The notes under the pieces: model-generated | Seen by the model: only the letters and a program-made list of their open reading frames with translations | The model's database searches: none | Told to the model about the DNA's origin: nothing | Program-made: the position numbers and the translations under genes | Shown here: positions 4,960 to 60,762 of the stretch, piece by piece | Numbering within the stretch: the first letter of the stretch is position 1 | How the letters are laid out: the number at the start of each line of letters is the position of its first letter | NCBI GenBank assembly: GCA_040876835.1 | Contig: JBBDOX010000018.1 | Location: forward strand, 82,396-146,395 | Direction: 5' to 3' | Length of the DNA stretch: 64,000 nt | Source: Candidatus Anderseniibacteriota bacterium | Lineage (GTDB): Bacteria > Patescibacteriota > Andersenbacteria > UBA10190

Positions 4960-6402
4960 ATGAGTATCGCCGCTCGCAGCCTTCATGGAGTGGGTGTTTG
5001 TCTTATCCCTCGGGAGGAAAACGCTTATAAGCCATTGGCTCTCCGTCATAAGCCGCTGGCCTTTGTGTCGGCATTGTTAATTTTAATGAAAGTTGCTGCC
5101 CTGGGAGTCATCGCTCTCACCCCTTCCCAGGCCGAGCTTTCCTCAATTACTACCGCCCGCGTTATCCAGTTCACTAATGCCGAACGCACTAAAGCAGGGC
5201 TTCCACCCCTCACGGCTAACGCCCAACTTTCAGCAGCGGCCAAGGAAAAAGGTGAGCACATGTTAGCTGAGGACTACTTCGCCCACATCTCCCCTTCCGG
5301 CGTCACTCCGTGGTATTGGATCCAGAAGCATGGCTATGTCTATCAGGTGGCCGGAGAGAACCTGGCAATTGATTTTACGGAAGCTGAAGATGTGGTGGCA
5401 GCCTGGATGGCTAGTCCGTCACACAAGGATAATATTCTGCATTCGGCATACACCGAAACGGGGGTAGCTGTTGTGAGTGGCGAATTTCAGGGTGGCACCT
5501 CTATTATCGTGGTTCATATGTTCGGCAAACCTTCTGGCGGACAAGTGGCGGCCCAGCTTTCTTCTCCTACTCCAACCCCTACTCCTGTACCGGCAGCCGC
5601 CCCTGTCAACAGTCCTACAGTAGCTCCTACCCCCACGCCCTCGCCTACTCCGCTACCTACGCCAGTCCCGGACACCAACCCCCCACGGGTGCCCCGCATT
5701 GCCTACAATGGTCAAAACACCACCGTGGGTAATCAGGCTACTTTCCTTCTGGAAGGAGAGCCTAATTCGACTGTTCATGTGCTTATTAACAGTCAACTAC
5801 GTGATAGCGTAACGGTTTCAGCGGAAGGTACTGTGACCAGAGAGCTTAATCTATCCAACCTGCCTGACGGAACCGTTGTGCTGCGGGTATACAGCAGCGA
5901 CAGCGCTGGTAATAAAAGCAGTTTGTCAGACCCCTTCACTGTCACTAAGGATACTTCAGGCCCTGAAGTATCAGCTGACCAGGTGCGGCTGGTTATCGCC
6001 CCCCAGTTCGATACTGTCTCAGCCACGCTGCTGCCGTTCCAGGAATCCTTCACTGCCGCTCGTCTAGCGCACGGGAGTACGGAAGTATCGCTTGCTTCGT
6101 CTCCGACGCTCCTGTCGATACACGATCCGGCCATCGTCCACGTGTCTGACGAGAGCGGCAACGAGACTACACTGGAGCTGCCGCTGCTCATCCCGCAGTT
6201 TGAATTTGATTTTAAAGATAGTGAGCTTAAAGCTCCAGCGCGGTTTAGTCGCCTCACTCGAAATATGACTGCCGCCATATTTATCACCACCTTCATTCTC
6301 TTAATTGTCGCTGTTCTGATCCGAGTTCGGATCCAACATCCCGCTTTAATTACTCATGCCTCTTTTGTAGTACTCCTTGCAGCAGCACTCTTTCTGGTGT
6401 AG
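4960..6402 (+). CDS. Surface protein with an N-terminal CAP/SCP (YkwD-like) domain, a Pro/Thr-rich linker, an Ig-like domain and a C-terminal transmembrane anchor.
   Basis: CAP-like segment ...FTNAERTKAGLPPL...HKDNILHSAYTETGVAV. This is followed by a PTPTPTPVP linker and a hydrophobic C-terminus. Confidence 0.6.
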   Translation: MSIAARSLHGVGVCLIPREENAYKPLALRHKPLAFVSALLILMKVAALGVIALTPSQAELSSITTARVIQFTNAERTKAGLPPLTANAQLSAAAKEKGEHMLAEDYFAHISPSGVTPWYWIQKHGYVYQVAGENLAIDFTEAEDVVAAWMASPSHKDNILHSAYTETGVAVVSGEFQGGTSIIVVHMFGKPSGGQVAAQLSSPTPTPTPVPAAAPVNSPTVAPTPTPSPTPLPTPVPDTNPPRVPRIAYNGQNTTVGNQATFLLEGEPNSTVHVLINSQLRDSVTVSAEGTVTRELNLSNLPDGTVVLRVYSSDSAGNKSSLSDPFTVTKDTSGPEVSADQVRLVIAPQFDTVSATLLPFQESFTAARLAHGSTEVSLASSPTLLSIHDPAIVHVSDESGNETTLELPLLIPQFEFDFKDSELKAPARFSRLTRNMTAAIFITTFILLIVAVLIRVRIQHPALITHASFVVLLAAALFLV

Positions 6403-6420
6403 GCAGTGGAAAAGTAAAAA

Positions 6421-6450
6421 TTGAGTATTTTGGGCCTATAATGGTAGAAT
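6421..6450 (+). promoter_or_regulatory. Candidate sigma70-type promoter for the histone-like gene.
   Basis: TTGAGT, an 18-nt spacer, then TAGAAT. A TATAAT also overlaps the spacer. A strong ribosome-binding site TAAGGAGGTG follows at 6490-6499. Confidence 0.3.
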
Positions 6451-6506
6451 TGCCCCGATGTGGAAACATCCTTTAAATTTCACTAAATGGTAAGGAGGTG
6501 TTATCT

Positions 6507-6683
6507 ATGAGCGACATGGTTGTTGTAGCAAGTAAGGTTCGCGCTCATCTAAAAGAAAAGGGCGTGAAAATGTCCGGAGAACTTCCAGACGCGTTAAACA
6601 AGAAAGTAATGCAGATGCTAGATGCAGCTGCTGAACGTGCACGAGCGAACAAGCGATCTACCGTAAAGCCACAAGACGCGTAA
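6507..6683 (+). CDS. Bacterial histone-fold protein, Bd0055-like singlet histone.
   Basis: 58-aa MSDMVVVASKVRAHLKEKG...ERARANKRSTVKPQDA. The VVV-SKV-LKEKG start and A-R-x-x-x-R-x-T-V-x-x-x-D end match the HMfB/Bd0055 histone fold (alpha1 through alpha3). The ribosome-binding site is strong. Confidence 0.7.
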   Translation: MSDMVVVASKVRAHLKEKGVKMSGELPDALNKKVMQMLDAAAERARANKRSTVKPQDA

Positions 6684-6706
6684 CGTTTTACTTGTCTTTT
6701 GATTCA

Positions 6707-6744
6707 AATAACCGCTACCTTACACAGGAGCGGTTATTTGTATG
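6707..6744 (+). terminator. Rho-independent terminator after the histone-like gene.
   Basis: Perfect 10-bp hairpin AATAACCGCT (12-nt loop) AGCGGTTATT followed by TGTATG. Confidence 0.55.
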
Positions 6745-6998
6745 TACAGGGCTCTATGTGGCCGTATATGTTATCGTTCGAAAGGGGTGACTTCGATAAA
6801 ATAGGAGGAGGGAGATGGTGTTTGTAAGGAGGAAGAAGAGAAAAAACCGCTGGCCAGGAATAGGCCCCAGAATACTACGCCCAAGGCTATCAGACCGGCT
6901 AAAAACCACCACGGCGTCATGTTTGGTCCTTTCTCCATATCTAGTTGACAAAAGCTATAGCTGGTGCTATTATATCATGTTTTAGTAATGAGGTCAAT

Positions 6999-7835
6999 AT
7001 GCGTGAAAAGATTGAATCAATAGAATACGTCTCGGAAAACAGTGCGGCCTATCTCCCGACGGCTGCAGTTGTGCCTGCTCCGGTTCCGGACGCTATCCCA
7101 GTTGTCCCCACCCCCACACCGGCGGGAACCCCCTCTTCTCGTCCATCCGCTACGGTGTTTATCGGTACATTTGTGTCAGCCTTTATGCTGGCCTTCGGTA
7201 TTATTATAGGCGGACTGACTGTCGCTCCGGTTGTCGCCCATCTATTTGTCTATGCTGATCAGGACTATGCTCCTCAGCTACCGCTGAGTGAAGAGCGCGA
7301 TGAGAGCGTGTTTGATATTACAAAAAATCCGGGTAAGAGACTGTATCCGTCTCTTGGTGTCGTAGAGAATATTGAAAGCGGCAACTGGATCCGTATTCCA
7401 TCTCTTGATGTAAACGTACCGCTGGTGTTAAGTCCGACTCTGGAAGATGTTGATGTGCTTAAAACCCTCGACCACGGTGCAGCTCTGTACCCCAACGGTG
7501 TATTACCGGGGCGTCTAGGTAATACCTTCATTGCCGCTCACAGCACCGGGGAGCCTTGGAAGGGCCTGTATCGCTTCGCCTTCCTGCGCATTAATGAACT
7601 CGAACCAGGTAATGTTATTCACCTGGATTATGATGGTGCCCGCTACACGTATGCGGTGCAGGAAAAAGAAATTGTGATTCCTACCCCCGATTTTCTGGTT
7701 ATCTCTGACCGCCCCGTTCCTACTATGAGTTTGATGGCCTGCTGGCCTCTATGGTCAACCCAAAAGCGCATGCTGATCCATGCTGAGCTGCAAAACGTTA
7801 CTCAACTGACAAGTCCTCCGGCTAGTGTAAGCTAA
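6999..7835 (+). CDS. Sortase family transpeptidase.
   Basis: His motif NTFIAAHSTG, Cys motif MSLMACWP (TLxTC-like) and a conserved Arg (KRMLIHAEL), with an N-terminal membrane anchor. The internal start at 6999 is preferred over the ORF-track start. Confidence 0.8.
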   Translation: MREKIESIEYVSENSAAYLPTAAVVPAPVPDAIPVVPTPTPAGTPSSRPSATVFIGTFVSAFMLAFGIIIGGLTVAPVVAHLFVYADQDYAPQLPLSEERDESVFDITKNPGKRLYPSLGVVENIESGNWIRIPSLDVNVPLVLSPTLEDVDVLKTLDHGAALYPNGVLPGRLGNTFIAAHSTGEPWKGLYRFAFLRINELEPGNVIHLDYDGARYTYAVQEKEIVIPTPDFLVISDRPVPTMSLMACWPLWSTQKRMLIHAELQNVTQLTSPPASVS

Positions 7836-20210: not shown

Positions 20211-22025
20211 TTACCCCTTTCCTGATTTTCCCAACTTGCTCTCTATTTCCGGCATAATAATCTGTGATGGTTTTCTTTCAGGAATCTGGATGTTGTTCCT
20301 GTTAAACAAACCTATTCGATGAAGCTTGGAGAGTGCTTCTATATTCACTCCGCCAACCATCAGAAGCTTCTCAGCATTTTGCTTTTGCAACGCACGAGTA
20401 ATAAGCGCTTGCTCCATATATACAAGAGGCTGCGTGTTCGTGGCATGAGGTGATGTGTCGGAAAAGGATCCACCGAATCGGAACTGCCTGGCTGAACGAT
20501 CAATGGCAAGTTTCGCTGTTTCCTTATCATCCTTTGCCGGATTTGCCTCTTTTACACTGTCAAAAAACGCTTTCATACATTCCACTAACGTCCCGCCCAA
20601 CATTCTCCGCTGCAGAGCGCGGAGATAATGGACGTCTACCACTCGCTGATGCCCAAAAAGCTCTGCCTGAGTTTCCTCCTCAATTAGCACTGCGCCTGCT
20701 TCTGAATTCACGCTTGATCTATCTAACCCGACGTTTTCTGTAATCGACAACCCCAACCCCTCCTTGTTTTCATTCTGGATTACGTGTGTTATCTCATGAT
20801 CCAGAACAGCCACGGCACCTGTCGGGCTGGTGCTGGCTAGCGCACGATTAAACGCTTCAGGCACCTTAACCACTCCCTGTTGACTTACAACAATCAGACT
20901 TTCTTTGGAGGGGTCAACAACGATCTGCCACAACCCGTCAGGAGCCCGGCCGGCTCTATCAGGACTATATTCTTCGTGCTGGCTTAAAATACCATATTCC
21001 CGTAAGGCCTTTTTTGCCCATCCGATGAACTCTTCAGCCCCTATTTTGATTTCCCGTAACAACTGTGGATCAACATCCTTGAATGTATAGTCCTCCATGG
21101 GCTCGGGATTTTTTATCATTTGCTCTATCTCTTCAATTATTTCCTGCGTTCCTGGATTAACGGGAGAGTAGTCACCTCCGTACATGCGCTCTCCTACACC
21201 CTGCGCGAATTTATCCAACCGACTAGAGGCCCGGTACTGTCGCTCGTCTTCAAAAAGCTTTGGACCGCGAATATTTTTCTCCAATCTTGCGTATATATCC
21301 TGTGACCTTTCCTGCGGGGCTGTCCTGTGCTGCTTTAAGAACACAGCCGTGTTGGCATATTCTCCTACCAGCAGCTCGTTCAACCGCCGCCTGTGTAAAG
21401 TCAGCATAGTTAGTTTTGCCTGCGAGACGTGGTCCTCTTTTCCTATAAACAACTCTTCTTGCTCCTTGTAGTACTGCTTCAGCAGGCGCAATGATTGCAG
21501 TTTATCTGCCAAAACTTCGGGGTTACGAACTATGTTGAGCTTTGTCGGATTCTCAACGTTCTCGAGTGATGCATACCCGTTATTGGCAAACTGCTCAACT
21601 ACAAGCCCTTCAGAATATTGCCTGCTCTTGCCTGAAATTTTTTCCAGCACTTTGGCATCAATCCCCCGGTAGTCAAGGCCACAAAAGTATTCTTCTATAT
21701 CTGTAAGGGAGCGGAACTGTGGCACCTCTGCGCCCAAGGCTTCTGCTAGATAGCTTCTTCCTTCTTCTGTGAGGAAGTACTCTTCGTAAAACTCAGAGGT
21801 ATTTATTCGCATCTTCCATGCATGTTCAATTCCCTTAGCTGTCTCTCCTGATTTTAAAGGCAGGCTCTCACTCCTTGTGAGTTCCTTTTCGTATTCCAAA
21901 ACCTCTTCTCGCTCTTCGGGAGAAAGAATGAATTCCGGGTCTTTGGCTAGAGATTCAACGGTCTGTTGAATGTCCATTCCGGGTCTTAAGGGAAAAGCCT
22001 CTGGTTTAAATGATTCCAGGTTCAT
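20211..22025 (-). CDS. DUF1704 / QEGLA-motif (MATCAP-like) putative zinc metallopeptidase.
   Basis: HEITH (HExxH) is followed by ...NENKEGLGLS, a QEGLA-like segment. 604 aa. Confidence 0.45.
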   Translation of the reverse strand: MNLESFKPEAFPLRPGMDIQQTVESLAKDPEFILSPEEREEVLEYEKELTRSESLPLKSGETAKGIEHAWKMRINTSEFYEEYFLTEEGRSYLAEALGAEVPQFRSLTDIEEYFCGLDYRGIDAKVLEKISGKSRQYSEGLVVEQFANNGYASLENVENPTKLNIVRNPEVLADKLQSLRLLKQYYKEQEELFIGKEDHVSQAKLTMLTLHRRRLNELLVGEYANTAVFLKQHRTAPQERSQDIYARLEKNIRGPKLFEDERQYRASSRLDKFAQGVGERMYGGDYSPVNPGTQEIIEEIEQMIKNPEPMEDYTFKDVDPQLLREIKIGAEEFIGWAKKALREYGILSQHEEYSPDRAGRAPDGLWQIVVDPSKESLIVVSQQGVVKVPEAFNRALASTSPTGAVAVLDHEITHVIQNENKEGLGLSITENVGLDRSSVNSEAGAVLIEEETQAELFGHQRVVDVHYLRALQRRMLGGTLVECMKAFFDSVKEANPAKDDKETAKLAIDRSARQFRFGGSFSDTSPHATNTQPLVYMEQALITRALQKQNAEKLLMVGGVNIEALSKLHRIGLFNRNNIQIPERKPSQIIMPEIESKLGKSGKG

Positions 22026-29550: not shown

Positions 29551-31278
29551 TTAAATACTCGGTCCTACGTCCTCATTTGTAGTTCCTGGAGGAGCAACCA
29601 AGCGTATGTAGGAAAATGGAATAACTACTCCCCCCGTCTCATTACTCCACTGCACTGTAGCGATAAAAGGATTGATTTCTCTTCTCTGTTTGAGCCTGTA
29701 TTCTGCTATATGATCAACCTCATCCGGATTTCTCGGGAATATATACTTAACTATACCTTCTCTGCCATCGCTTGGATTAATGACGCGTTGCCCATTCCAC
29801 TTTCTCTGTGCTTTTGCAAGGAAAGCTGCCCTCCCAAACTTATTATCCGGCACATTCTTAGTTCCGTTACCTTTCAAGATGAAACTAATCATTCTAGAAC
29901 TAAGTTTCTTCGTAGGTGGAATATCTACACCGTACCCCGTGAGAAACGCTTCCTGTTTCTTGGTCGGTCGCATTGTTTCCGGCAACTGTTTTTTACCGGG
30001 AGATGCTTTTTCTCTTTCTTTTCTTCTTTTTTCGGCCTTTTCTTTTTTTGCCTGAGCCTCCTTAGCCTGAAGCTCCTCCACCCTTTTACGTTCCTCTTCT
30101 GGATTTTCTCGGAGCGCTCTCCTTTCCATAAATCGCTTGCGCGTTTCATTGAAGAGTTCTTTAATCCGAATTACTCCGCCTGAACTTTCTATAGCTTCCC
30201 GAAAAGATTTAAATCGTAATGGGCTTTCTGCTGGCTGAACGGCTACAGGGCTCTCATATTTGCGACTAGAAGTTTCGTTCGTAAGTTTGGGAATAAAAGT
30301 GTCGGAAGGGAGTTTGTAAATACAAACTGGTTTTTCTAGTCGGTCCGCGACTGATTTGTCAACCTCTAAGATAAGTCTTTGTTCCCCTCTGTCCCCATAG
30401 GATTCGTAATTTATTTTGAACTGAAAATTCTCTTCAAAGCGACTCCGTATAAGTCTGCGCGCAGCTGCGTGTGCGATATCCTCTGATGCCCACACACGTA
30501 AATTTTTATCGTTGGTGCGAATACTATATTCCCGATGCGGCTTTATTTCTTTTAGGCTTGTTTTCAAGCTTGCATGGTAAAGGAAAGGCGGCTTTTCAGC
30601 TTTTTCTGGACTTGATACCTCTTCAAAATTCTTATGCGTGTTTGAACTCTGTTTTTTCTGATCACCAACCAGCTTCCATTCATATTGGGTAACCTTGTCT
30701 GGTTCCAAATTTTGATGCCTATATCCAGTCGGGGTTCCTAATTTATCTAAGTTAATATTTTCAGAGGTACACCCTACTACATACTCGTGGTAGTGAATCA
30801 AATCTCTAAGTCCAGGATATTTCCAGCCATCTTCTGGCCTGTATTCCTTATCGTATTGCCGAGGATGCTTTAACGTGCTTGGATTTACATTTACTATCCC
30901 CGCCTCCGTTAAGGCTTTCATCGCCGCCTGTGCTGCGCTTTCTCCCTCTTGTATCCGCTTACCTATTTCTGTATGCTTCTCGTCTTCAGTATCGCCATGC
31001 AAGACTCTCTTCGCTTCAACTAACTTCCAAAGACTTCCTTTGTCATCGGTATATTGAATATCAACAAGAGCAACTGATACTTCTCGTACTAGCTCTCCTT
31101 CTTTCTCGACGAGAGCTGCATACCCCGCTTCAACTTCTCTCTCAAGATCTTTAAGGGTTTGGGCTGCGGGATATTCTTCCGATCCCCATCTTTGGTAAGG
31201 AATATTATATTTATCAAGCAGCTCTCTGACACTTGGTAAATTTTCAGGATTGTTAATCCTTGGTTCTCTTTCTGACAT
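29551..31278 (-). CDS. Large hypothetical protein (575 aa) with a Lys/Glu-rich coiled-coil stretch.
   Basis: Complete ORF containing KRVEELQAKEAQAKKEKAEKRRKEREK. No catalytic motif recognised. It lies immediately 3' of tRNA-Trp. Confidence 0.5.
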   Translation of the reverse strand: MSEREPRINNPENLPSVRELLDKYNIPYQRWGSEEYPAAQTLKDLEREVEAGYAALVEKEGELVREVSVALVDIQYTDDKGSLWKLVEAKRVLHGDTEDEKHTEIGKRIQEGESAAQAAMKALTEAGIVNVNPSTLKHPRQYDKEYRPEDGWKYPGLRDLIHYHEYVVGCTSENINLDKLGTPTGYRHQNLEPDKVTQYEWKLVGDQKKQSSNTHKNFEEVSSPEKAEKPPFLYHASLKTSLKEIKPHREYSIRTNDKNLRVWASEDIAHAAARRLIRSRFEENFQFKINYESYGDRGEQRLILEVDKSVADRLEKPVCIYKLPSDTFIPKLTNETSSRKYESPVAVQPAESPLRFKSFREAIESSGGVIRIKELFNETRKRFMERRALRENPEEERKRVEELQAKEAQAKKEKAEKRRKEREKASPGKKQLPETMRPTKKQEAFLTGYGVDIPPTKKLSSRMISFILKGNGTKNVPDNKFGRAAFLAKAQRKWNGQRVINPSDGREGIVKYIFPRNPDEVDHIAEYRLKQRREINPFIATVQWSNETGGVVIPFSYIRLVAPPGTTNEDVGPSI

Positions 31279-31676: not shown

Positions 31677-33224
31677 CTATTTGTCCATATCCTGCTTTAG
31701 TATCCACTGCTTCACCGATTCTTCCCACTCGTACAGCCTCTTAGGGGTAGGATCCTGAGTAATTCCTTCAGTACGCTGCCACTGCCCCCCTGCCGCTCTG
31801 TAACGGGCCAGTATTTTCCATTCCGGATGAATAATGTCCGGAACCGCAATGGCCAGACGCTGCGTTTCTTCCTGGGAAAGCACGTCTACAAATACTGTAT
31901 TGGGCTGGTCTGTTATAACAACGCGGAGAGGATTTGCCTGAGGATCAGTGGCAATCTCTACAATGTGTTCGGCCACAAACGCAGTAAGCTCGGCGTCAGA
32001 AAATCCTGATGCCGGTAAAGACTCCTGAGAGTTTGCCGAGCGGATTTTTGACTGAACCAAATGTACGCTGCCGCCAGGCATCGCGAAGGAGCCGATGTTC
32101 TTGGTTAGCCCCACCCGGCTATCGAGAACATGCGCCTGGATTTGTCCGTTCGGCAACTGAAGCAGAAAAGACAGATACTGAGAGCTTGCGGCATGAGAAG
32201 AGAGCAGTACACCAGGGGTCTCTGCTATCTTGCTGTGTGTGCCACTCTGGGTAATCCAGAATGAAAGAGTCTGTTGATGTTGGGTGGCATACAGGAGTGT
32301 GTTGTCATTGATCCACTGCACGTGGACCACCGCCCCTACTACCGGATATTTATCAACTCGTCCGTCGCCGCGGGCAGTCACAAGCTGGGCCGGGGCGATG
32401 TTGCTACTGCTGCTGGCAAACGCCAGAGAGCTACCGTTAGCGCTAATATCCACGATGCCACGAGACACGTCGTCTTTTATATTGTCGAAGTTTAGTTGAG
32501 GAAACTGCGCGGATATTTTGGCCGGGAGTGCCTGTACGGTTACGAATTCAATTTTTTCTTCATCCCCTACCCCACTATCTGCCAGAAACCACAGAGCCGT
32601 ACTCTGACTGTTCCAGCGCGGAGTGGTTATAACATCGGAGGCAGTGATATTTTCAGCGAGCAGTCCTGTGCCGCCATCTTTAGTGTCATACATCCACAGT
32701 TCCGTCTTTTTCGGTTTGGAGTCGGCGTCATCAAGATAATATGCTAAACGCTCACCGCTCGGACTTAAGAAAAGATCGCGCAATTCGACCAGAGAGGTCT
32801 GATCAACAAGCAGCTTTTCTTCACCATTTTTATACACCAGTTGGCGCGCATCTTCCTTCTCACCAGCCCGATAGTGATACCATCCCCTTCCGTCAAACAC
32901 CGCCCCCGCCTCTGCAGTATCAGGAGGGTCAACTGGAATACATTGCGGATTGCAGATATACACCTGACGGCTTCCGTTGCTCTGTACGTGCGCCAGTACC
33001 AGATCCATATCAGGAATGGTCGAAGGAGAGGGGTCTTGAGCCGAGCGCACTTCAGGCTCTGGCTGCGGCTGGCTATCTTGCTGCAGCCACGCCCAAGCAC
33101 CACCAGCTAGAATGGCCAGAAGTACCAGCAGACGCCAGAAAAATCCAAAGGTAAAAAATGTATATCGACGCATACCTGTTGTAGTGTACCAAAGGCTAGC
33201 AGTTGCAGCGATTCGGAAAATCAA
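31677..33224 (-). CDS. Membrane-anchored beta-propeller (TolB/PD40-like) protein.
   Basis: N-terminal transmembrane helix. Repeated ...GERLAYY...DGG... segments resemble PD40/WD40-like blades. Confidence 0.4.
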   Translation of the reverse strand: MIFRIAATASLWYTTTGMRRYTFFTFGFFWRLLVLLAILAGGAWAWLQQDSQPQPEPEVRSAQDPSPSTIPDMDLVLAHVQSNGSRQVYICNPQCIPVDPPDTAEAGAVFDGRGWYHYRAGEKEDARQLVYKNGEEKLLVDQTSLVELRDLFLSPSGERLAYYLDDADSKPKKTELWMYDTKDGGTGLLAENITASDVITTPRWNSQSTALWFLADSGVGDEEKIEFVTVQALPAKISAQFPQLNFDNIKDDVSRGIVDISANGSSLAFASSSSNIAPAQLVTARGDGRVDKYPVVGAVVHVQWINDNTLLYATQHQQTLSFWITQSGTHSKIAETPGVLLSSHAASSQYLSFLLQLPNGQIQAHVLDSRVGLTKNIGSFAMPGGSVHLVQSKIRSANSQESLPASGFSDAELTAFVAEHIVEIATDPQANPLRVVITDQPNTVFVDVLSQEETQRLAIAVPDIIHPEWKILARYRAAGGQWQRTEGITQDPTPKRLYEWEESVKQWILKQDMDK

Positions 33225-37233: not shown

Positions 37234-39483
37234 CTACGGCAGATCCTCGCGCTTAACAACATATACCAGCACCCGTTCCTCTCCATGAATGTTTTCGTAA
37301 GTATGTAGAAGCTCAAACAGATCCGGACGTTCTCGCACACTCTGCCAGAAGGGTCCGTCACTTCGTTCAACAAGGTATTTAATGTTGTTTCCTTTCATCC
37401 ATGACAATTCCGGCATAGCATCTACCCCTCCTTTGTAGAACATACGGCGCTTAACCGGCAGCAATATTTTTGCAACTTCCTCGTCACCATTCGGTATACC
37501 CACATTGCCGTGCTGACTGCGCAGGAAGGTTGCAGCCTTGATCATCATATTGGTTGAGTGCGCCCGCACGTTGTACACCTCCTGGGTCAGCTGGAGTGAT
37601 TGATGTCCCTCGGCATAGGCATAAGTGGAAAGCATGCCCAATGCAAAAAGTGTAGCTAGTTGAGCATAGTTAGATTTACCCCACTGTAGAAGACTGTGAA
37701 TGCCAAAGACGAGTAGCAGGGTGAAGAATGGAATAAGGGGCAGAAAATAGCGGGATTTCGGGAGGATGAGTAAAATGACAAACATTTGCAGAAGGGCTAC
37801 TGCCAGTACTACCAGGGCGTCATAACGGCGTGAACGAATAAACGGTACCAGCCCCAAACCTGTAAAGAGCCACGGGATGACAATAAGGAACTGACGAGCG
37901 GCTGAACTTTTCGTCAACATAAATATGGCCAGGACGAGAAGAGACGCCAGTCCAGCCGTTGCCCAGTAGAGCCTACCATTCTTAAAAGAGCGTGCTTTTA
38001 GCAGCCCGATTGCTACGCTTGCCAATACACCAAGCCCCACAGCGGGCAAGGTAAACGGATGTATGTCACCCTCTTCGGGGGTCAACCACATGGAATTTAT
38101 AAATTTATTAAACTGATACAGGTTATCCGCCAGTCCTCCTAAGGATTGGACAAGAGATAGTCCTCCATCAGCCTGCAAATCTTCAAATGTACGGATACCG
38201 GACGTACCTGACCATACCAGCGAAACCTGCGGGATCATCATAATTAAGATGGCCGTCGTAATAAGGAGAGTAGCTCGCTTCCAAGGCAGTTTTTCACGCC
38301 ACCAAAGAGCCGGTAATAGCACCGCGGCAATGACTACCCCTTCATACCGCGTTAAGAATGTCAGCCCGCACAGGACAGCTAATGCCCACTGCCAGTTGCG
38401 ATTCTTGCCTTTAAGATAGGCAAGAATCGAGCCTAATATGAATGCGACGTATAGCGTGTTAGCCAGGCCACTCGGAGATTCCCAAATGAAATCCTGATTT
38501 ACTGCAAGCAAGACTCCCGCCCCAATAGCCAGACCCCAGGAAAGTTTGAACTCCCGCGCAACGAAAGCAAGCAGTACGGCTGCGCCGGCAGCTGCGATCA
38601 TACCTACCAGACGCGACCACAAAAGCGGATCGGGTGTAAAAAAGCCGGGAATTAAAAGTAAGGAATACAGAGGGCCTTTACGGGGATCGGCTGCAAAAGG
38701 ATCGTTGCCCTGGAGCGCTTCGTTAGCTTTTGAGAGATAATTAAATGCATCCCCTCCAAATATGCCTTCGATGCTCTGAAGATATGGTACCCGGATAGAG
38801 AATGTTGCTAAGGCTAACAGAACAAGGAGCCCGCCTACGACAACCGGCCTGGAGTTGCCTCTGGAAGCTGCAAACAAAAGCCCGGCAATCAGAAGACTAA
38901 TAAGGAGACGATTCAGACCTCGGATAGCGGCGGCGTCTGTAATTTGCCCCCAGATAGCAACAGATTGCCAAAGCGGCACACGCTGGAAAGTTCGAAATCC
39001 GATGTCCCCATACGAATCCTCACCATCTACGATCATGAGTCCTCCTTCGTACAGCTCGGACTGGGATTCATAACGGATTAGGATCGCTTGGTCCTGGGAT
39101 GTCTCGGTCGTTGTAGTAAAAGTAATTACAGGCTGTCCCGGGGTAAGTGGAGGCGTAAGTTGTACTCGCACCCATTGGTCTTGAGGGGTGAGATTAATAC
39201 CTGCACGACCTCGCTCTTTACCTTCTTCGTCAACAGCGATAATAGTTGCTGGGTATGTATCATTCCCTCGAACAGCCACTTCAATAGTATGAACAGGATA
39301 TTCTCCAGTGATACGTTGTCCTACTGTATGTTCCCCAAAAACACGCCTGATATATTTTGGGTCTTCTTTAGGTACGCTATGCTGCCGCAGCGCTAGAACG
39401 GGAATGAATGCAGCAATGATCACCATTCCTACCAGCGCTGCTTTAATGGCCATTTGTGTATCCTTCTGCTTCATAGAACGCAT
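37234..39483 (-). CDS. Large polytopic membrane protein, possible GT-C type glycosyltransferase (ArnT/PMT/YfhO-like).
   Basis: 749 aa, more than 12 transmembrane helices, an N-terminal extracytoplasmic domain and acidic loop motifs (GGDAFNY...). No firm family signature. Confidence 0.4.
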   Translation of the reverse strand: MRSMKQKDTQMAIKAALVGMVIIAAFIPVLALRQHSVPKEDPKYIRRVFGEHTVGQRITGEYPVHTIEVAVRGNDTYPATIIAVDEEGKERGRAGINLTPQDQWVRVQLTPPLTPGQPVITFTTTTETSQDQAILIRYESQSELYEGGLMIVDGEDSYGDIGFRTFQRVPLWQSVAIWGQITDAAAIRGLNRLLISLLIAGLLFAASRGNSRPVVVGGLLVLLALATFSIRVPYLQSIEGIFGGDAFNYLSKANEALQGNDPFAADPRKGPLYSLLLIPGFFTPDPLLWSRLVGMIAAAGAAVLLAFVAREFKLSWGLAIGAGVLLAVNQDFIWESPSGLANTLYVAFILGSILAYLKGKNRNWQWALAVLCGLTFLTRYEGVVIAAVLLPALWWREKLPWKRATLLITTAILIMMIPQVSLVWSGTSGIRTFEDLQADGGLSLVQSLGGLADNLYQFNKFINSMWLTPEEGDIHPFTLPAVGLGVLASVAIGLLKARSFKNGRLYWATAGLASLLVLAIFMLTKSSAARQFLIVIPWLFTGLGLVPFIRSRRYDALVVLAVALLQMFVILLILPKSRYFLPLIPFFTLLLVFGIHSLLQWGKSNYAQLATLFALGMLSTYAYAEGHQSLQLTQEVYNVRAHSTNMMIKAATFLRSQHGNVGIPNGDEEVAKILLPVKRRMFYKGGVDAMPELSWMKGNNIKYLVERSDGPFWQSVRERPDLFELLHTYENIHGEERVLVYVVKREDLP

Positions 39484-51500: not shown

Positions 51501-52068
51501 CATTGGTGCTCGGGATCAGTCCCCTGTACGGATAGCTGGTGTTATCGCAAAAATTAACAAGATTATTACTAAAAGTGGTCAGCCAATGCTTTTTGTGGCT
51601 GTAGAGGATCTAACAAGCAAAGTAGAAGTATTAGTCTTTCCTAAGATGCTTGAGACTACGAGTGAAATTTGGGTTGATGGCGGTAAGGTAATCCTGCAAG
51701 GAAAAATTAGTGATAAAGACGGTGAAACTAAGATTCTCCTTGATAAAGCCTGGCCTCTAACGAAAGAAAACCTAGAAAACCTGGCTGGCAGTAATCCCCA
51801 CGTCAAAAAGGCCAGCGGCGGTTCTGCGCCCTCGCGTGGCGTTCATCTGTATATTCCTGAAGCAATTAGCCGTATACAGATGGAGGCCATACGCGATGTT
51901 TTATCTCGCCTGCATCAGGATGGTGGTCCCCTGCCAGTAGAAATTATCGTCTCGCGTGATGGAAAACCCACTAAACTGCAGACTCAGTACCGCGTATCGC
52001 TCGAAGCACAGATTGTGCAGGAACTTGCCCCTATTCTAGGACCTCAAGCCATTACAGTTGTTAGCTAA
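48574..52068 (+). CDS. dnaE: DNA polymerase III alpha subunit.
   Basis: PHP domain HLHVHSHYSLLDG at the N-terminus, about 1160 aa. The start at 48574 is preferred. Confidence 0.9.
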   Translation: MAGDFTHLHVHSHYSLLDGLGKLDAIVARTKALGMDSIAVTDHGAMYGVIEFVQTAKEYGIKPIIGMEAYLAPKGRANKRGKIDANPRHLTIIAQNNEGYKNLMKLSTKAFLEGYYYKPRLDYELLEQHRNGLIILSGCLNGDIPKAIQEKRPDDVKQLIEWHLEMFGRDNFYFEVQDHPHIEEQKQLNAALVKYAKQYNIGLVATADSHYIHPEDAEAQDVLVCVQTGKTVQDKDRLCMLDEDFSIKSPQEVKEAWKDHPEAVDNTQKIAEMCNVEFEFGVNKLPPFPLPKGKTADAALRESCEQGLKTRFGKNLPADARERVDYELDVIKKTGFASYFLIVSDFVNEAKRRGILVGPGRGSAAGSLVSYLTNITNVDPLKYNLLFERFLNPERVSMPDIDLDFADDRRGEVIDYVRDKYGAAHVSQIITFGTMAARAAIRDAGRALAFPYSFCDQIAKAIPPFTNFEQSLAQTGELRQMYDSDPQAKKLIDTAKKLEGVCRHASTHAAAVVITDEPLTEYVPLQLSSTDDGETGTVTQYAMGPVEALGLLKMDFLGLKNLTVIQKAIDIIKERHNTNIDLDDLPLQDPAAYKLLQEGKSIGVFQLESAGMRRYLKELKPTEFEDIISILALYRPGPMDSIPDFIAAKHGRKKITYLHPILQPILEKTYGVIVTQDQVLQIARDFAGFSYAEADILRKAVGKKIKELLDEQRNKFITGAINTKSIDKETAQKVWDFIEPFARYGFNRAHAACYAMIAYQTAYLKANYPSEFLCALLISDEGNTDRQAIEIADALSLNIEVLPPDINESYDDFTVVSTEESTAAIRFGLGGVKNVGHNAIGALIEERTKNGAYKDLFDVFRRVNSRDFNRKSVESLAKAGAFDCVAERAQMITNAEKLLEFNRGLYRKRDMGQQNLFGTNQEELAAPTIQLDTVAPAEQDLKLQWEKELLGLYVSEHPLTALRQDLERLSVPIAEIIGARDQSPVRIAGVIAKINKIITKSGQPMLFVAVEDLTSKVEVLVFPKMLETTSEIWVDGGKVILQGKISDKDGETKILLDKAWPLTKENLENLAGSNPHVKKASGGSAPSRGVHLYIPEAISRIQMEAIRDVLSRLHQDGGPLPVEIIVSRDGKPTKLQTQYRVSLEAQIVQELAPILGPQAITVVS

Positions 52069-53224
52069 TATGCCGGTTGAAGTTGTTTTACCTGTCAAAA
52101 CGCTAGTTCTGCTTCTGATAGCAGGGATTACTGCCGTTGGGGGGAGCTTAGCATATGTCTACCTGCCGCGGGCAACCATTACTCTGCGCCCCGCTACTTC
52201 AATTAAGGAAGCAGAGCAAACTATCATTCTTTCCACCGCAGCTAAGGAGCCTGATTTTGTGCGATATATTCTTCCCGCAAAGCTAGTTGAGCAAGAAGTA
52301 ACTCAAAAACAGCTATTTCAACGATCGGGTAGTGAAGCTGCAACGACCGAGGATTTTGCAAGAGGAATAATAACTTTGACTAACAAACAATCAGAAGAGC
52401 AAAATCTACTTCCCAAAACTCATTTGCGTCACGAAGCAAATGGGGTATTTTTTCTCACCGATGCGGCAGTGAAAATTCCGCCCCAGAGCGAAGTGCAAGT
52501 ATCGATAACTGCTAAAGAGAAAGGATCTTCAGGTAACGTGCCTGCTGGTTCATTCATTGTTGATAAACTGCCTACTTCATTGCAAACAGCTGTTTACGGC
52601 ACCAGTAGCCAAGCGTTTAGTGGTGGATTGGTGACTGAACGTGCCTTAACAGAGGAAGAAATTTCAGCCGCTAAAGAAAATATTCTTGTAGCCGCTAAGC
52701 AACAAGCAACGGGAGAGCTTACCTTAAAAGCTGGTGGAGCACAGATTCGCGAGGACCTAATTACGGCATCAGTGCTCTCTGAAAACATATCGGCTGAACC
52801 GGGCAGTCGCACTACTGAGTACTCTATTGAAACTACTGTGCGAGCACGCGGATTTGTAGTTGATGACAAAGACATGCTTAGTCTAACCTTACTAAAATTG
52901 CGCAGTAATATTCCATCCGATGAAGAATTTATTTCCTATGAGCCTGATTCATTTCAGCTCAGCGTTGATAAAGCTGATTTCGAACGAGGTGAAATTCGCG
53001 TGATCGGCAAACTGACTGGTCTGTTTGCTCGCAAGATAAGTCCGAGCACTTTGCGAGCCGCTAGCATTGCCGGGCTTAGCCAGAAGGAAGCTCAAACACA
53101 TTTTGAACAAATGCCGGATGTGGGCACTGCCGAGGTCCGCTTTTGGCCCTTCTGGGTCACCACCACACCCGCTCGACCCCAAGCCGTAGAAATGATGGTA
53201 GAAAATATTCACGCTAAACCCTAG
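52058..53224 (+). CDS. Hypothetical membrane-anchored protein.
   Basis: Overlaps the dnaE stop by 11 nt. N-terminal transmembrane helix. No family recognised. Confidence 0.45.
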   Translation: MLANMPVEVVLPVKTLVLLLIAGITAVGGSLAYVYLPRATITLRPATSIKEAEQTIILSTAAKEPDFVRYILPAKLVEQEVTQKQLFQRSGSEAATTEDFARGIITLTNKQSEEQNLLPKTHLRHEANGVFFLTDAAVKIPPQSEVQVSITAKEKGSSGNVPAGSFIVDKLPTSLQTAVYGTSSQAFSGGLVTERALTEEEISAAKENILVAAKQQATGELTLKAGGAQIREDLITASVLSENISAEPGSRTTEYSIETTVRARGFVVDDKDMLSLTLLKLRSNIPSDEEFISYEPDSFQLSVDKADFERGEIRVIGKLTGLFARKISPSTLRAASIAGLSQKEAQTHFEQMPDVGTAEVRFWPFWVTTTPARPQAVEMMVENIHAKP

Positions 53225-59196: not shown

Positions 59197-60762
59197 CTAC
59201 TCAACAATTTCTTCTTTTCGCTCTCGAATAAACACAAACCACTCTTCGGCTACATCGATCAGGAGCTTAAAAGGAGCTTCGATAATAAGGTCCATTACGA
59301 ATACGACAATATTAAGCTGAGTTATACCAGTTGCCAGCCAACGTCCAAATTCCAGCATCGGAAGGGTTAGAAAGCTGAATATAGCGCTAAAAGCGCCTTC
59401 TTTCTTACGCACCAACTGGACTTCCCTAATTGATCGGCGAATTCTGAAGGCTAAAAAGCTTGTTAGGCCTAAAAATACTACAAAGAAAAACGTCGCTACC
59501 ACAGAGAATTCTAACCGATGAAGTACGAAGAAAAGTACGTAGAAAAATCCAATTAATAGACTAGCGTAAATAGTAGCAAAGACCCAACGGGTAATGAGCC
59601 CATACCCCCGCGGAGGACTGATAATGATATTGGGCAACACTCCCTGCCCAGTAACGATTGTTCGTACCTGCTCGACAATACGAACGGTATTTTCATTTCC
59701 AGGCAGACGTACTGTCACGCTTAATAGGAACAGAAGAAACGGATGAAAGAGAACGTTAATCAGTAGAGCCAGCAAGTGAATGGTGCGAGCCGTAATAAGC
59801 TCAAATAACAGTTCAAATGGCAAAGTTAGCGCCGTTTTGGTAATAAGCAGAAACACCACACTGTGATAGGCACGCTGTTGAATTTTTTGCTGGATGTATT
59901 GCGTGCGAGCGGTTATTGCTTGCTTAGTACCCTCTTCAAGAGACTCCCGAGAATCCCATGTACCAGGCGAAAAACGTAGCAGATGCCAGATCATACGGTA
60001 TGGGACGCTGACTGGCATAAGAAGCCGCTGTAAGCGTGGCTGAATGGGGTGAGATATAATCCGATCCATTTCTGCCCGAAAAGCAGGAAACTGCTGAGCG
60101 AGCTCCTGGGTATGCTCGACGGTAAACTCTGACCGCTGCCAAAAAGGAAAACGGCGAACGAAGTAGTGATACAACACTAGCGACTCACTGGAGGCAAACA
60201 GTGCCTTATGACATGCAAAATATAGCTGAACTGGCTGTTGAGCAGGGGTAACCAACTCATCAGCCCAGATCACTCGGTGATAGGTGTCCTGATACATGAC
60301 ATGTACCAATGAGTCTTCAAGCTGCTCTGGAAAAAACAGTCGATCAATAGTTATTGCCACGAATTTTAAAAAGTACGCCTTATCGGCTTCGGATAATCCG
60401 TCAATAACCGACCGAGCCTTATCAATAACAGAAGCCACCGCTGGAATAATTGCTTTAGATACAGGACGTATATAATGAGCGCGAATCAGCTCTTGCAACA
60501 CCAAGTTTGCCAATAGTTCGTTAGAGCGATCTTCTGCGATGCGACGCTCAACTATACGAGCTATAGCGTTCTGACGAAGAATATGTTCTTCATCAGGCTC
60601 AAGAGTATTACGCAGTCGCTCATACGCGAATGCGATTCTACGCGTAGCAGAAGAGACTGGAATTACTTCATCTTCCGTCAATATTCTTTCTTCGGCAGGA
60701 TCACGTACCAGTGACCGTAACGCCACAATCTGTTCTCGTAAAAGCACTTCCATAAGTAACAC
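59197..60762 (-). CDS. Hypothetical protein with an N-terminal soluble domain and a C-terminal multi-pass membrane domain.
   Basis: 521 aa with hydrophobic helices in the last roughly 200 aa. No family recognised. Confidence 0.45.
   Translation of the reverse strand: MLLMEVLLREQIVALRSLVRDPAEERILTEDEVIPVSSATRRIAFAYERLRNTLEPDEEHILRQNAIARIVERRIAEDRSNELLANLVLQELIRAHYIRPVSKAIIPAVASVIDKARSVIDGLSEADKAYFLKFVAITIDRLFFPEQLEDSLVHVMYQDTYHRVIWADELVTPAQQPVQLYFACHKALFASSESLVLYHYFVRRFPFWQRSEFTVEHTQELAQQFPAFRAEMDRIISHPIQPRLQRLLMPVSVPYRMIWHLLRFSPGTWDSRESLEEGTKQAITARTQYIQQKIQQRAYHSVVFLLITKTALTLPFELLFELITARTIHLLALLINVLFHPFLLFLLSVTVRLPGNENTVRIVEQVRTIVTGQGVLPNIIISPPRGYGLITRWVFATIYASLLIGFFYVLFFVLHRLEFSVVATFFFVVFLGLTSFLAFRIRRSIREVQLVRKKEGAFSAIFSFLTLPMLEFGRWLATGITQLNIVVFVMDLIIEAPFKLLIDVAEEWFVFIRERKEEIVE

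Follow-up and report, generated by a model that had tools for sequence, protein, structure and literature searches.

A tail-less, α3-truncated histone, probably of the face-to-face type, in Candidatus Anderseniibacteriota

A 64-kb stretch of DNA from Candidatus Anderseniibacteriota (64,000 nucleotides of contig JBBDOX010000018.1, assembly GCA_040876835.1; hereafter the window) carries, at positions 6507..6683 of the plus strand, the gene for a protein of 58 amino acids (aa) that is a genuine histone with a truncated third helix (α3-truncated). The protein is probably a tail-less histone of the face-to-face (FtF) category, the Andersenbacteria representative of a family related to HLp of Leptospira perolatii, and most likely it forms a tetramer like that of HLp, with about 60 bp of DNA wrapped around it non-specifically. 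A preliminary description, made from the letters of the sequence, had taken it for a singlet bacterial histone of the type of Bd0055 from Bdellovibrio bacteriovorus. The first half of that claim is borne out by sequence searches, by the family profile and by structure prediction, all of which give histones, whereas the second is contradicted by the same searches, as detailed below.

Histone fold and subtype

The gene starts at ATG 6507, stops at TAA 6681–6683 and is translated as MSDMVVVASKVRAHLKEKGVKMSGELPDALNKKVMQMLDAAAERARANKRSTVKPQDA; the open reading frame (ORF) is present as first described, with coordinates that were then off by one base. An in-frame GTG at 6498 lies upstream of the ATG, but since it falls inside the Shine–Dalgarno (SD) sequence TAAGGAGGTG, the ATG is taken as the start. 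Close homologues are all 58–60 aa long, and the ratio of nonsynonymous to synonymous change (pN/pS) against eight orthologues is 0.12–0.30, with synonymous sites near saturation: the histone gene is real and under strong purifying selection. It is present in one copy in the window, with a GC content of 47.5% (46.8% for the window as a whole), and its product is basic, with an isoelectric point of 10 and a net charge of +5. The NCBI entry for the identical protein, from a Candidatus Andersenbacteria metagenome-assembled genome (MAG), reads only “hypothetical protein”.

When the protein was compared with all PDB chains using phmmer, the best match was HLp (9QT0; E 2.2e-12), gap-free across residues 3–57, followed by Bd0055/HBb (8FVX/8CMP; E 3e-5) and by HTkC of Thermococcus kodakarensis (9F2C; E 0.03). 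A profile built from the alignment of 43 homologues, which is the family alignment used throughout, gave the same order with HLp at 3e-24 (88 bits), HBb at 3.7e-10 (43 bits) and HTkC at 4.5e-8 (37 bits). An AlphaFold2 model of the monomer, computed with the family alignment, consists of α1 (residues 8–17), L1 (18–25), α2 (26–47), L2 (48–54) and a one-turn α3 (55–57). Foldseek matched this model to PDB entries that are nearly all histone-fold proteins: HLp came first (TM-score 0.80, 46% identity), the first five ranks were taken by HLp, HBb, Bd0055 and HTkC at TM-scores of 0.74–0.80, and eukaryotic H4, H2B and NF-Y followed. The α3-truncated class is apparent in the model and the alignment alike, with α3 confined to residues 55–57, a chain end at 58, and an α2 of 22 residues that lies gap-free on the shortened α2 of HLp. 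The RxTxxxxD motif, which combines the arginine–aspartate (RD) clamp with the DNA-binding threonine of L2, is found as R50-S-T52-V-K-P-Q-D57, with R50, T52 and D57 invariant in the family, and the bacterial S9-K10 motif is also present. Two matches to NCBIfam models (Cbp1 and an isoprenyl transferase) are irrelevant. The protein had also been said to align position by position with archaeal HMfB; the end of α2 and the L2 motif do align, but the rest does not, and a match over the whole length is rejected, the hhalign profile comparison covering 23 columns at a probability of 4%.

The subtype question turns on how two histone dimers meet. Schwab et al. (2024) divided the α3-truncated histones into groups, two of which are relevant here: the FtF histones, whose defining feature is a closed toroidal homotetramer, and the “bacterial dimers” of the Bd0055 type, which lack both FtF residues, R48 and N52 in HMM numbering, and are strictly dimeric. 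In FtF histones, an arginine ending α2 (HMM R48, HLp R49, HTkC R45) forms a salt bridge with the carboxylate at the C-terminus of the opposite dimer, and an asparagine (HMM N52, HLp N53) is hydrogen-bonded to the clamp arginine of the opposite dimer. In HTkC, it is R45 that binds this carboxylate, and mutating it to alanine (R45A) leaves a dimer; the tetramer interface of HLp sets R49, S52 and N53 against R55, T61 and F63 (Hu et al. 2025, PMC12701072).

In the ungapped alignment, each position of the protein studied here is the HLp position minus five. R44, N48 and R50 then correspond to HLp R49, N53 and R55, D57 corresponds to the clamp aspartate D62, and R44 is the counterpart of HTkC R45. 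All four belong to the positions that are invariant across the 43 homologues (V7, S9, K10, S23, A41, R44, N48, R50, T52, V53, K54 and D57), and the C-terminus lies one residue after clamp aspartate D57 in every member of the family, which is the same register as in HLp, HTkC and D4GZE0. Bd0055 has serine and aspartate in the columns of the FtF arginine and asparagine. The residues of HLp that contact DNA (A13, S14, K15, K17, K21, G29, K54, T57 and R59) are matched by A8, S9, K10, R12, K16, G24, K49, T52 and K54, and these counterparts are mostly invariant or nearly so in the family. By clustering of sequences too, the protein sides with the FtF histones, as the profile favours HLp and the nearest genomic relatives outside the lineage are found in Planctomycetota and Leptospira, both of them FtF phyla. 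The assignment to the FtF, HLp-like type is made because HLp is the closest solved relative, and because R44, N48, R50 and a C-terminus at the position following the clamp aspartate are invariant in the family, whereas Bd0055 lacks these tetramer features.

If the protein behaves as its homology to HLp and HTkC suggests, two chains would pair into a handshake dimer, and two such dimers would meet face to face and form a closed torus of four chains, in which R44 would bridge to the C-terminal carboxylate of A58 in the opposite dimer while N48 would bond to R50. About 60 bp of DNA would be wrapped non-specifically around a basic rim, with predicted contacts at A8-S9-K10, R12 and K16 in α1, at G24 in L1, and at K49, S51, T52 and K54 in L2. 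The histone would then act as an abundant protein organising the nucleoid.

Several points count against this picture. Three of the six interface residues of HLp are substituted (S52 by A47, T61 by Q56 and F63 by A58), and the AlphaFold2 monomer reached a pLDDT (predicted local distance difference test score) of 77, which is moderate confidence only. The search against the Pfam histone families that had been put forward as a check of the fold did find matches, to PF00808 (CBFD_NFYB_HMF; 14.2 bits, cutoff 21.4) and to PF09123 (DUF1931; 17.2 bits, cutoff 21.8), both below the gathering score and both covering residues 25–57 only; these low scores reflect the limited sensitivity of the models for α3 singlets and are no argument against the histone fold. 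The presumed abundance of the histone is read solely from the quality of its promoter and SD sequence. Finally, a tblastn search for HU, with the sequences of E. coli HupA and B. subtilis HBsu, gave no match in the window, in the 10-kb flanks or in any of the compared loci, a coverage that is too small to establish that HU is absent.

The strongest competing explanation is that the protein is, after all, a dimeric histone of the Bd0055/HBb type, which would bend DNA like HU and IHF or coat straight DNA end-on, and would not wrap it. The two proteins belong to the same α3 superfamily, are 38–40% identical and have in common the S9-K10 motif and a VVxSKV N-terminus; moreover, the tetramer is proposed by homology, and the three substitutions just listed fall in its interface. 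This alternative is nevertheless unlikely, since the arginine and asparagine that are lacking by definition in the bacterial dimers are invariant here, the family profile gives HLp 88 bits and HBb, as the second-best match, 43, and the chain stops one residue after the clamp aspartate as in HLp and HTkC, with no residue left to form the extension that packs on α2 in Bd0055. The earlier assignment to the Bd0055 type is contradicted on the same grounds, HLp being by far the closer relative both in the single-sequence search and with the profile.

Natural tandem doublets were encountered in the same searches. At least ten of them (P0085, P0087, P0089, P0090, P0092–P0095, P0097 and P0103), all from outside the window, 118–150 aa long and α3/FtF-like, are among the strongest matches of the family profile, and each half keeps the xSKV... 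and R..N(G/K)R.TV...D motifs. Pfam does not call them DUF1931 pseudodimers, and an FtF doublet category is absent from the main text of Schwab 2024. A low-confidence model of P0085 is a handshake pseudodimer, with single-chain pseudodimers such as HMk, H2A–H2B chimeras and AQ328 as its best PDB matches, and favours handshake pairing in an indirect way only.

Transcription signals and a DnaA-box-like element

The histone gene was first described as monocistronic, with its own promoter, a strong ribosome-binding site and a terminator, and this is supported by comparison with 24 orthologous upstream regions and with the hairpins downstream of the orthologues. The −35 hexamer TTGAGT (6421..6426, plus strand) is separated by a spacer of 18 nt from an extended −10 element, TGGTAGAAT (6442..6450, plus strand), in which TAGAAT at 6445–6450 is preceded by TG. 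Among the orthologous loci, TGnTAnAnT is found in 22 of 24, at −56 to −66 from the ATG, and TTGnnn lies exactly 18 nt before it in 18 of 24; the promoter that emerges from the comparison reads TTGnnn-18-TGGTAnAAT. The SD sequence TAAGGAGGTG (6491..6500, plus strand) lies 6–8 nt before the ATG, and AAGGAGGTG is present at −15 to −17 in all 24. A promoter scan by itself does not rise above chance (three promoter-like sites in 1.2 kb, 1.7 expected); the promoter call is supported because the comparison of orthologues shows −10, −35 and SD to be conserved.

On the 3′ side, a hairpin resembling an intrinsic terminator, with a T-rich 3′ side, occupies 6705..6740 of the plus strand. The perfect hairpin reported earlier is there, with a perfect stem of 12 bp plus three inner pairs. 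Its folding free energy is −24 kcal/mol (z −3.9), and none of 200 shuffled sequences was as stable. A scanner for consensus terminators did not call the hairpin at 6705–6740, most likely because it requires at least five T in the eight bases after the stem, whereas part of the T-rich run here (TTATTTG, then TATGT) falls within it. A hairpin with a T-run behind it is found no more than about 50 nt from the stop codon in nearly all orthologues; the hairpins differ in sequence, and it is the feature that is conserved. Rfam models matched nothing in 6350–6950, and in the whole window they matched only four tRNAs. As there is no terminator between 6402 and 6421, read-through into the histone gene from the gene upstream, which encodes a CAP-domain protein, may also occur.

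The core promoter in the window is flanked by two copies, in the same orientation and 54 bp apart, of a motif that resembles a DnaA box. One, GCAGTGGAAAA (GTGGAAA; 6403..6413, plus strand), lies just 5′ of the −35 element, and TGTGGA[AT]AG is found at the equivalent position before the −35 in eight of the related loci. The other, GATGTGGAAAC (6457..6467, plus strand), covers about +1 to +11, adjoining the transcription start, and is a putative operator; in most Andersenbacteria loci, GATGTGGAWAA follows the −10 by 6–9 nt. The spacing of the two copies is 54–55 bp in L024 and L027 as well. Read on the opposite strand, TGTGGATAA is the canonical DnaA box, TTATCCACA. A perfect copy of TGTGGATAA is found in five loci, and orthologous promoters carry either TGTGGATAA or TGTGGAAAA; the base that varies is the W position of the relaxed DnaA consensus TTWTNCACA. 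Both copies in the window are degenerate with respect to this consensus (TGTGGAAAC and AGTGGAAAA). TGTGGAWAA, the reverse complement of TTWTCCACA, was also seen in the histone promoters of 17 named loci (L002, L005, L007–L011, L014, L016–L020, L022–L024 and L027) and of others.

Sites within one mismatch lie upstream of the histone gene in 21 of about 29 loci of the Andersenbacteria lineage, always on the coding strand, against a background of 0.085 expected per 320 nt; none was found in about 47 loci of Planctomycetota, Leptospira and others. In about 329 kb that contain about 169 extended −10-like sites, a −10 element with the box behind it is seen only at the histone promoter and at one stray site (L030, position 5811), and the exact core ATGTGGAAA occurs once in the window, which together rule out a general promoter element. 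A 5′-terminal hairpin in the mRNA was considered as the cause of the conserved GATGTGGAWAA and rejected, the hairpins being weak and inconsistent in register (z −3.4 to +0.9) and further copies lying untranscribed upstream of the −35; an operator acting as DNA fits the motif better. As a tentative possibility, DnaA may control the Andersenbacteria histone gene through the TGTGGAWAA sites, which would couple the supply of histone to replication, and the FtF histone could also be the principal nucleoid protein of the lineage. Neither dnaA nor an origin was found among the large ORFs of the window. If the idea is right, it would describe a counterpart, in ultra-small bacteria of the Candidate Phyla Radiation (CPR), of histone synthesis in S phase. 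The element appears to be previously unreported, and it is the only part of this work that might be new biology.

Host, neighbourhood and distribution

The host belongs to the CPR, with the lineage Patescibacteria group, Parcubacteria group, Candidatus Anderseniibacteriota. Because it is flanked by housekeeping genes and its GC content is unremarkable, the locus is considered chromosomal and not part of a mobile element; the window encodes DnaE, ThrRS, GatB, MiaA, RF1, PrmC, FtsW, S2, MurJ, L10/L12 and four tRNAs. At a cutoff of E ≤ 1e-5, Pfam matched nothing in six large ORFs of 388–749 aa (20214–22025, 29554–31278, 31680–33224, 37237–39483 and 59200–60762 on the minus strand, 52058–53221 on the plus strand), as is typical of the “dark” proteins of CPR bacteria.

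The histone gene sits between a gene for a secreted or membrane protein with a CAP domain (4960..6402, plus strand) and a sortase gene (6945..7835, plus strand), and the block yceG, manC (both pointing away), CAP-domain gene, histone, sortase is kept in about 28 related loci. At 6945–6997, two divergent, near-consensus σ70-like promoters were noticed, TTGACA-17-TATTAT on the plus strand (6945–6973) and TTGACC-17-TATAAT on the minus strand (6997–6969), each matching 11 of 12 positions and TG-extended; the former is probably the promoter of the sortase gene. Between the terminator of the histone gene and the sortase gene there is a small hydrophobic ORF of 55 aa (6771–6938, minus strand); at the corresponding position of Logan contig L001 (10265–10414) a gene of 49 aa is called, and none is called there in L002, L003 and L005.

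Such constancy of gene order might indicate that the histone has a role outside chromatin or specific to this locus, as a dedicated regulator or as a partner of its envelope neighbours, the CAP-domain protein and the sortase. The order of CAP-domain gene, histone and sortase is strictly kept in about 28 genomes, and histone folds are known to be used outside chromatin. Against this, the histone gene is served by a promoter and a terminator of its own, both conserved, and the sortase gene by a separate promoter; the conserved residues are those with which HLp makes non-specific contacts with the DNA backbone; and the genes next to the homologues in Planctomycetota and Leptospira are unrelated to those found here. 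Such a role is accordingly very unlikely.

Among the loci of the Andersenbacteria lineage, the neighbouring proteins are 41–75% identical and the histones 65–84%, and, as the synteny is kept as well, vertical inheritance within the lineage is indicated. Fourteen of the loci come from MAGs labelled “uncultured Candidatus Saccharibacteria”; they show the full synteny from yceG to the sortase gene wherever the contigs reach (L019 has the CAP-domain gene only in part), and their labels are probably wrong or generic. The nearest relatives outside the lineage are in Planctomycetota (55–64% identity) and then in Leptospira (49%). Further relatives at 51–55% identity to the Andersenbacteria histone come from L059 (an archaeal MAG, “archaeon isolate ARS54”), L055 (Candidatus Falkowbacteria, Parcubacteria) and L057 (“Deltaproteobacteria” RIFCSPHIGHO2_02_FULL_40_28, probably Bdellovibrionota), a spread in keeping with FtF histones being patchily distributed and prone to transfer.

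A scan of the species-representative genomes of GTDB confirmed relatives at 465 places, and an exhaustive profile search of 1.84 billion representative clusters gave 1,699, of which 272 had E ≤ 1e-10. That the ORF is spurious or arose in assembly, as its very short length and the label “hypothetical protein” might suggest, has next to no probability, refuted as it is by the significant matches to solved histone structures, the profile scores, the conservation among 43 homologues, the 84 homologous clusters and the 465 places in GTDB, and the pN/pS of 0.12–0.30.

Comparison with known histones

Bacterial histones are rare, with about 1,700 of 1.84 billion representative clusters matching the family profile, and to our knowledge only two of them, HBb and HLp, have been characterised. 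Among bacteria, FtF histones have been recorded in Spirochaetota, Planctomycetota, Bdellovibrionota and Myxococcota, and basic tails on them have been described (Schwab 2024). No histone fold from Patescibacteria or CPR bacteria was found in the searchable main texts, or in the supplements of Schwab 2024 and Hu 2025. Contrary to the first supposition, however, the lineage had been recorded before: Hocher et al. (2023), in their Supplementary Table 1, list two singlets from Andersenbacteria (OGY33174.1 and PIT98311.1) and one from the “Patescibacteria group”. As Andersenbacteria had been catalogued in this way, the accepted view of bacterial histones does not change. The catalogued singlets from Andersenbacteria and Patescibacteria (OGY33174.1, PIT98311.1 and UBA6539) are orthologues of the protein in the window, and OGY33174.1 is the L030 protein, 66% identical to it; they differ in being listed only as “bacterial singlets”, without subtype, synteny, promoter or regulation, and several homologues are labelled “histone H3/H4” by JGI. 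What is added here is the FtF assignment, the synteny throughout the lineage, the verified transcription signals and the promoter box. With this assignment, the CPR lineage Candidatus Anderseniibacteriota as a whole would join the FtF branch of tetrameric histones that wrap DNA, and the result suggests that ultra-small bacteria of the episymbiont type may organise their DNA with a histone. As a minimal, tail-less natural variant of 58 aa, the protein should also be useful for asking what an FtF tetramer needs.

Among the known systems, the nucleosomal HMfB shares with the protein only the RKT...D motif of L2, at a similarity that is not significant, and has a full α3 and a longer α2 and forms hypernucleosomes. 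The archaeal FtF histone HTkC (PDB 9F2C) has the residues of the toroid type, R45 being the equivalent of R44, and the same C-terminal register, but its identity is 30% and the bacterial A-S-K motif is missing from it. Bd0055/HBb (PDB 8FVX, 8CMP, 9EZZ) is likewise a member of the α3 superfamily, with a short α2, a one-turn α3, the S-K motif and the RD clamp; it differs in lacking the arginine and asparagine of the tetramer and in carrying a C-terminal extension (...DIVIDHL) that packs on the α2 of its partner, and it is a strict dimer that bends or coats DNA. The FtF histones of Planctomycetota (Phycisphaerae, Sedimentisphaerales, Brocadiia and Pirellulales) form the next-closest clade, at 55–64% identity, and share the C-terminus ...ANKRSTVKPQD[LV] with the protein. 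Most of them, however, have Lys/Ala-rich N-terminal tails of 15–45 aa, and none has the synteny of Andersenbacteria or the TGTGGAWAA box; in the loci compared here, Lys/Ala-rich tails were seen in 13 from Planctomycetota, whereas the proteins of Andersenbacteria have no tail.

The closest relative of solved structure is HLp, a tetrameric, DNA-wrapping FtF histone (PDB 9QT0/9QT1/9QT2; Hu et al. 2025, PMC12701072), whose orthologue in L. interrogans, LA_2458, is essential and highly abundant. There are differences: Leptospira and most bacterial FtF histones carry basic N-terminal tails, whereas the protein described here is tail-less, with four residues before its VVVASKV helix; the C-terminal Phe of HLp is Ala or Val here, and its T61 and S52 are Gln and Ala; and the neighbours of HLp are SMC, MAP and DUF350 genes, whereas those found here are CAP-domain and sortase genes in a CPR host. 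Over the whole fold, however, the two proteins align without a gap at 46–49% identity, and they share the truncated α2 and α3, the RD clamp, the R/N/R residues of the tetramer, the chain end one residue after the clamp aspartate and nearly all of the DNA contacts.

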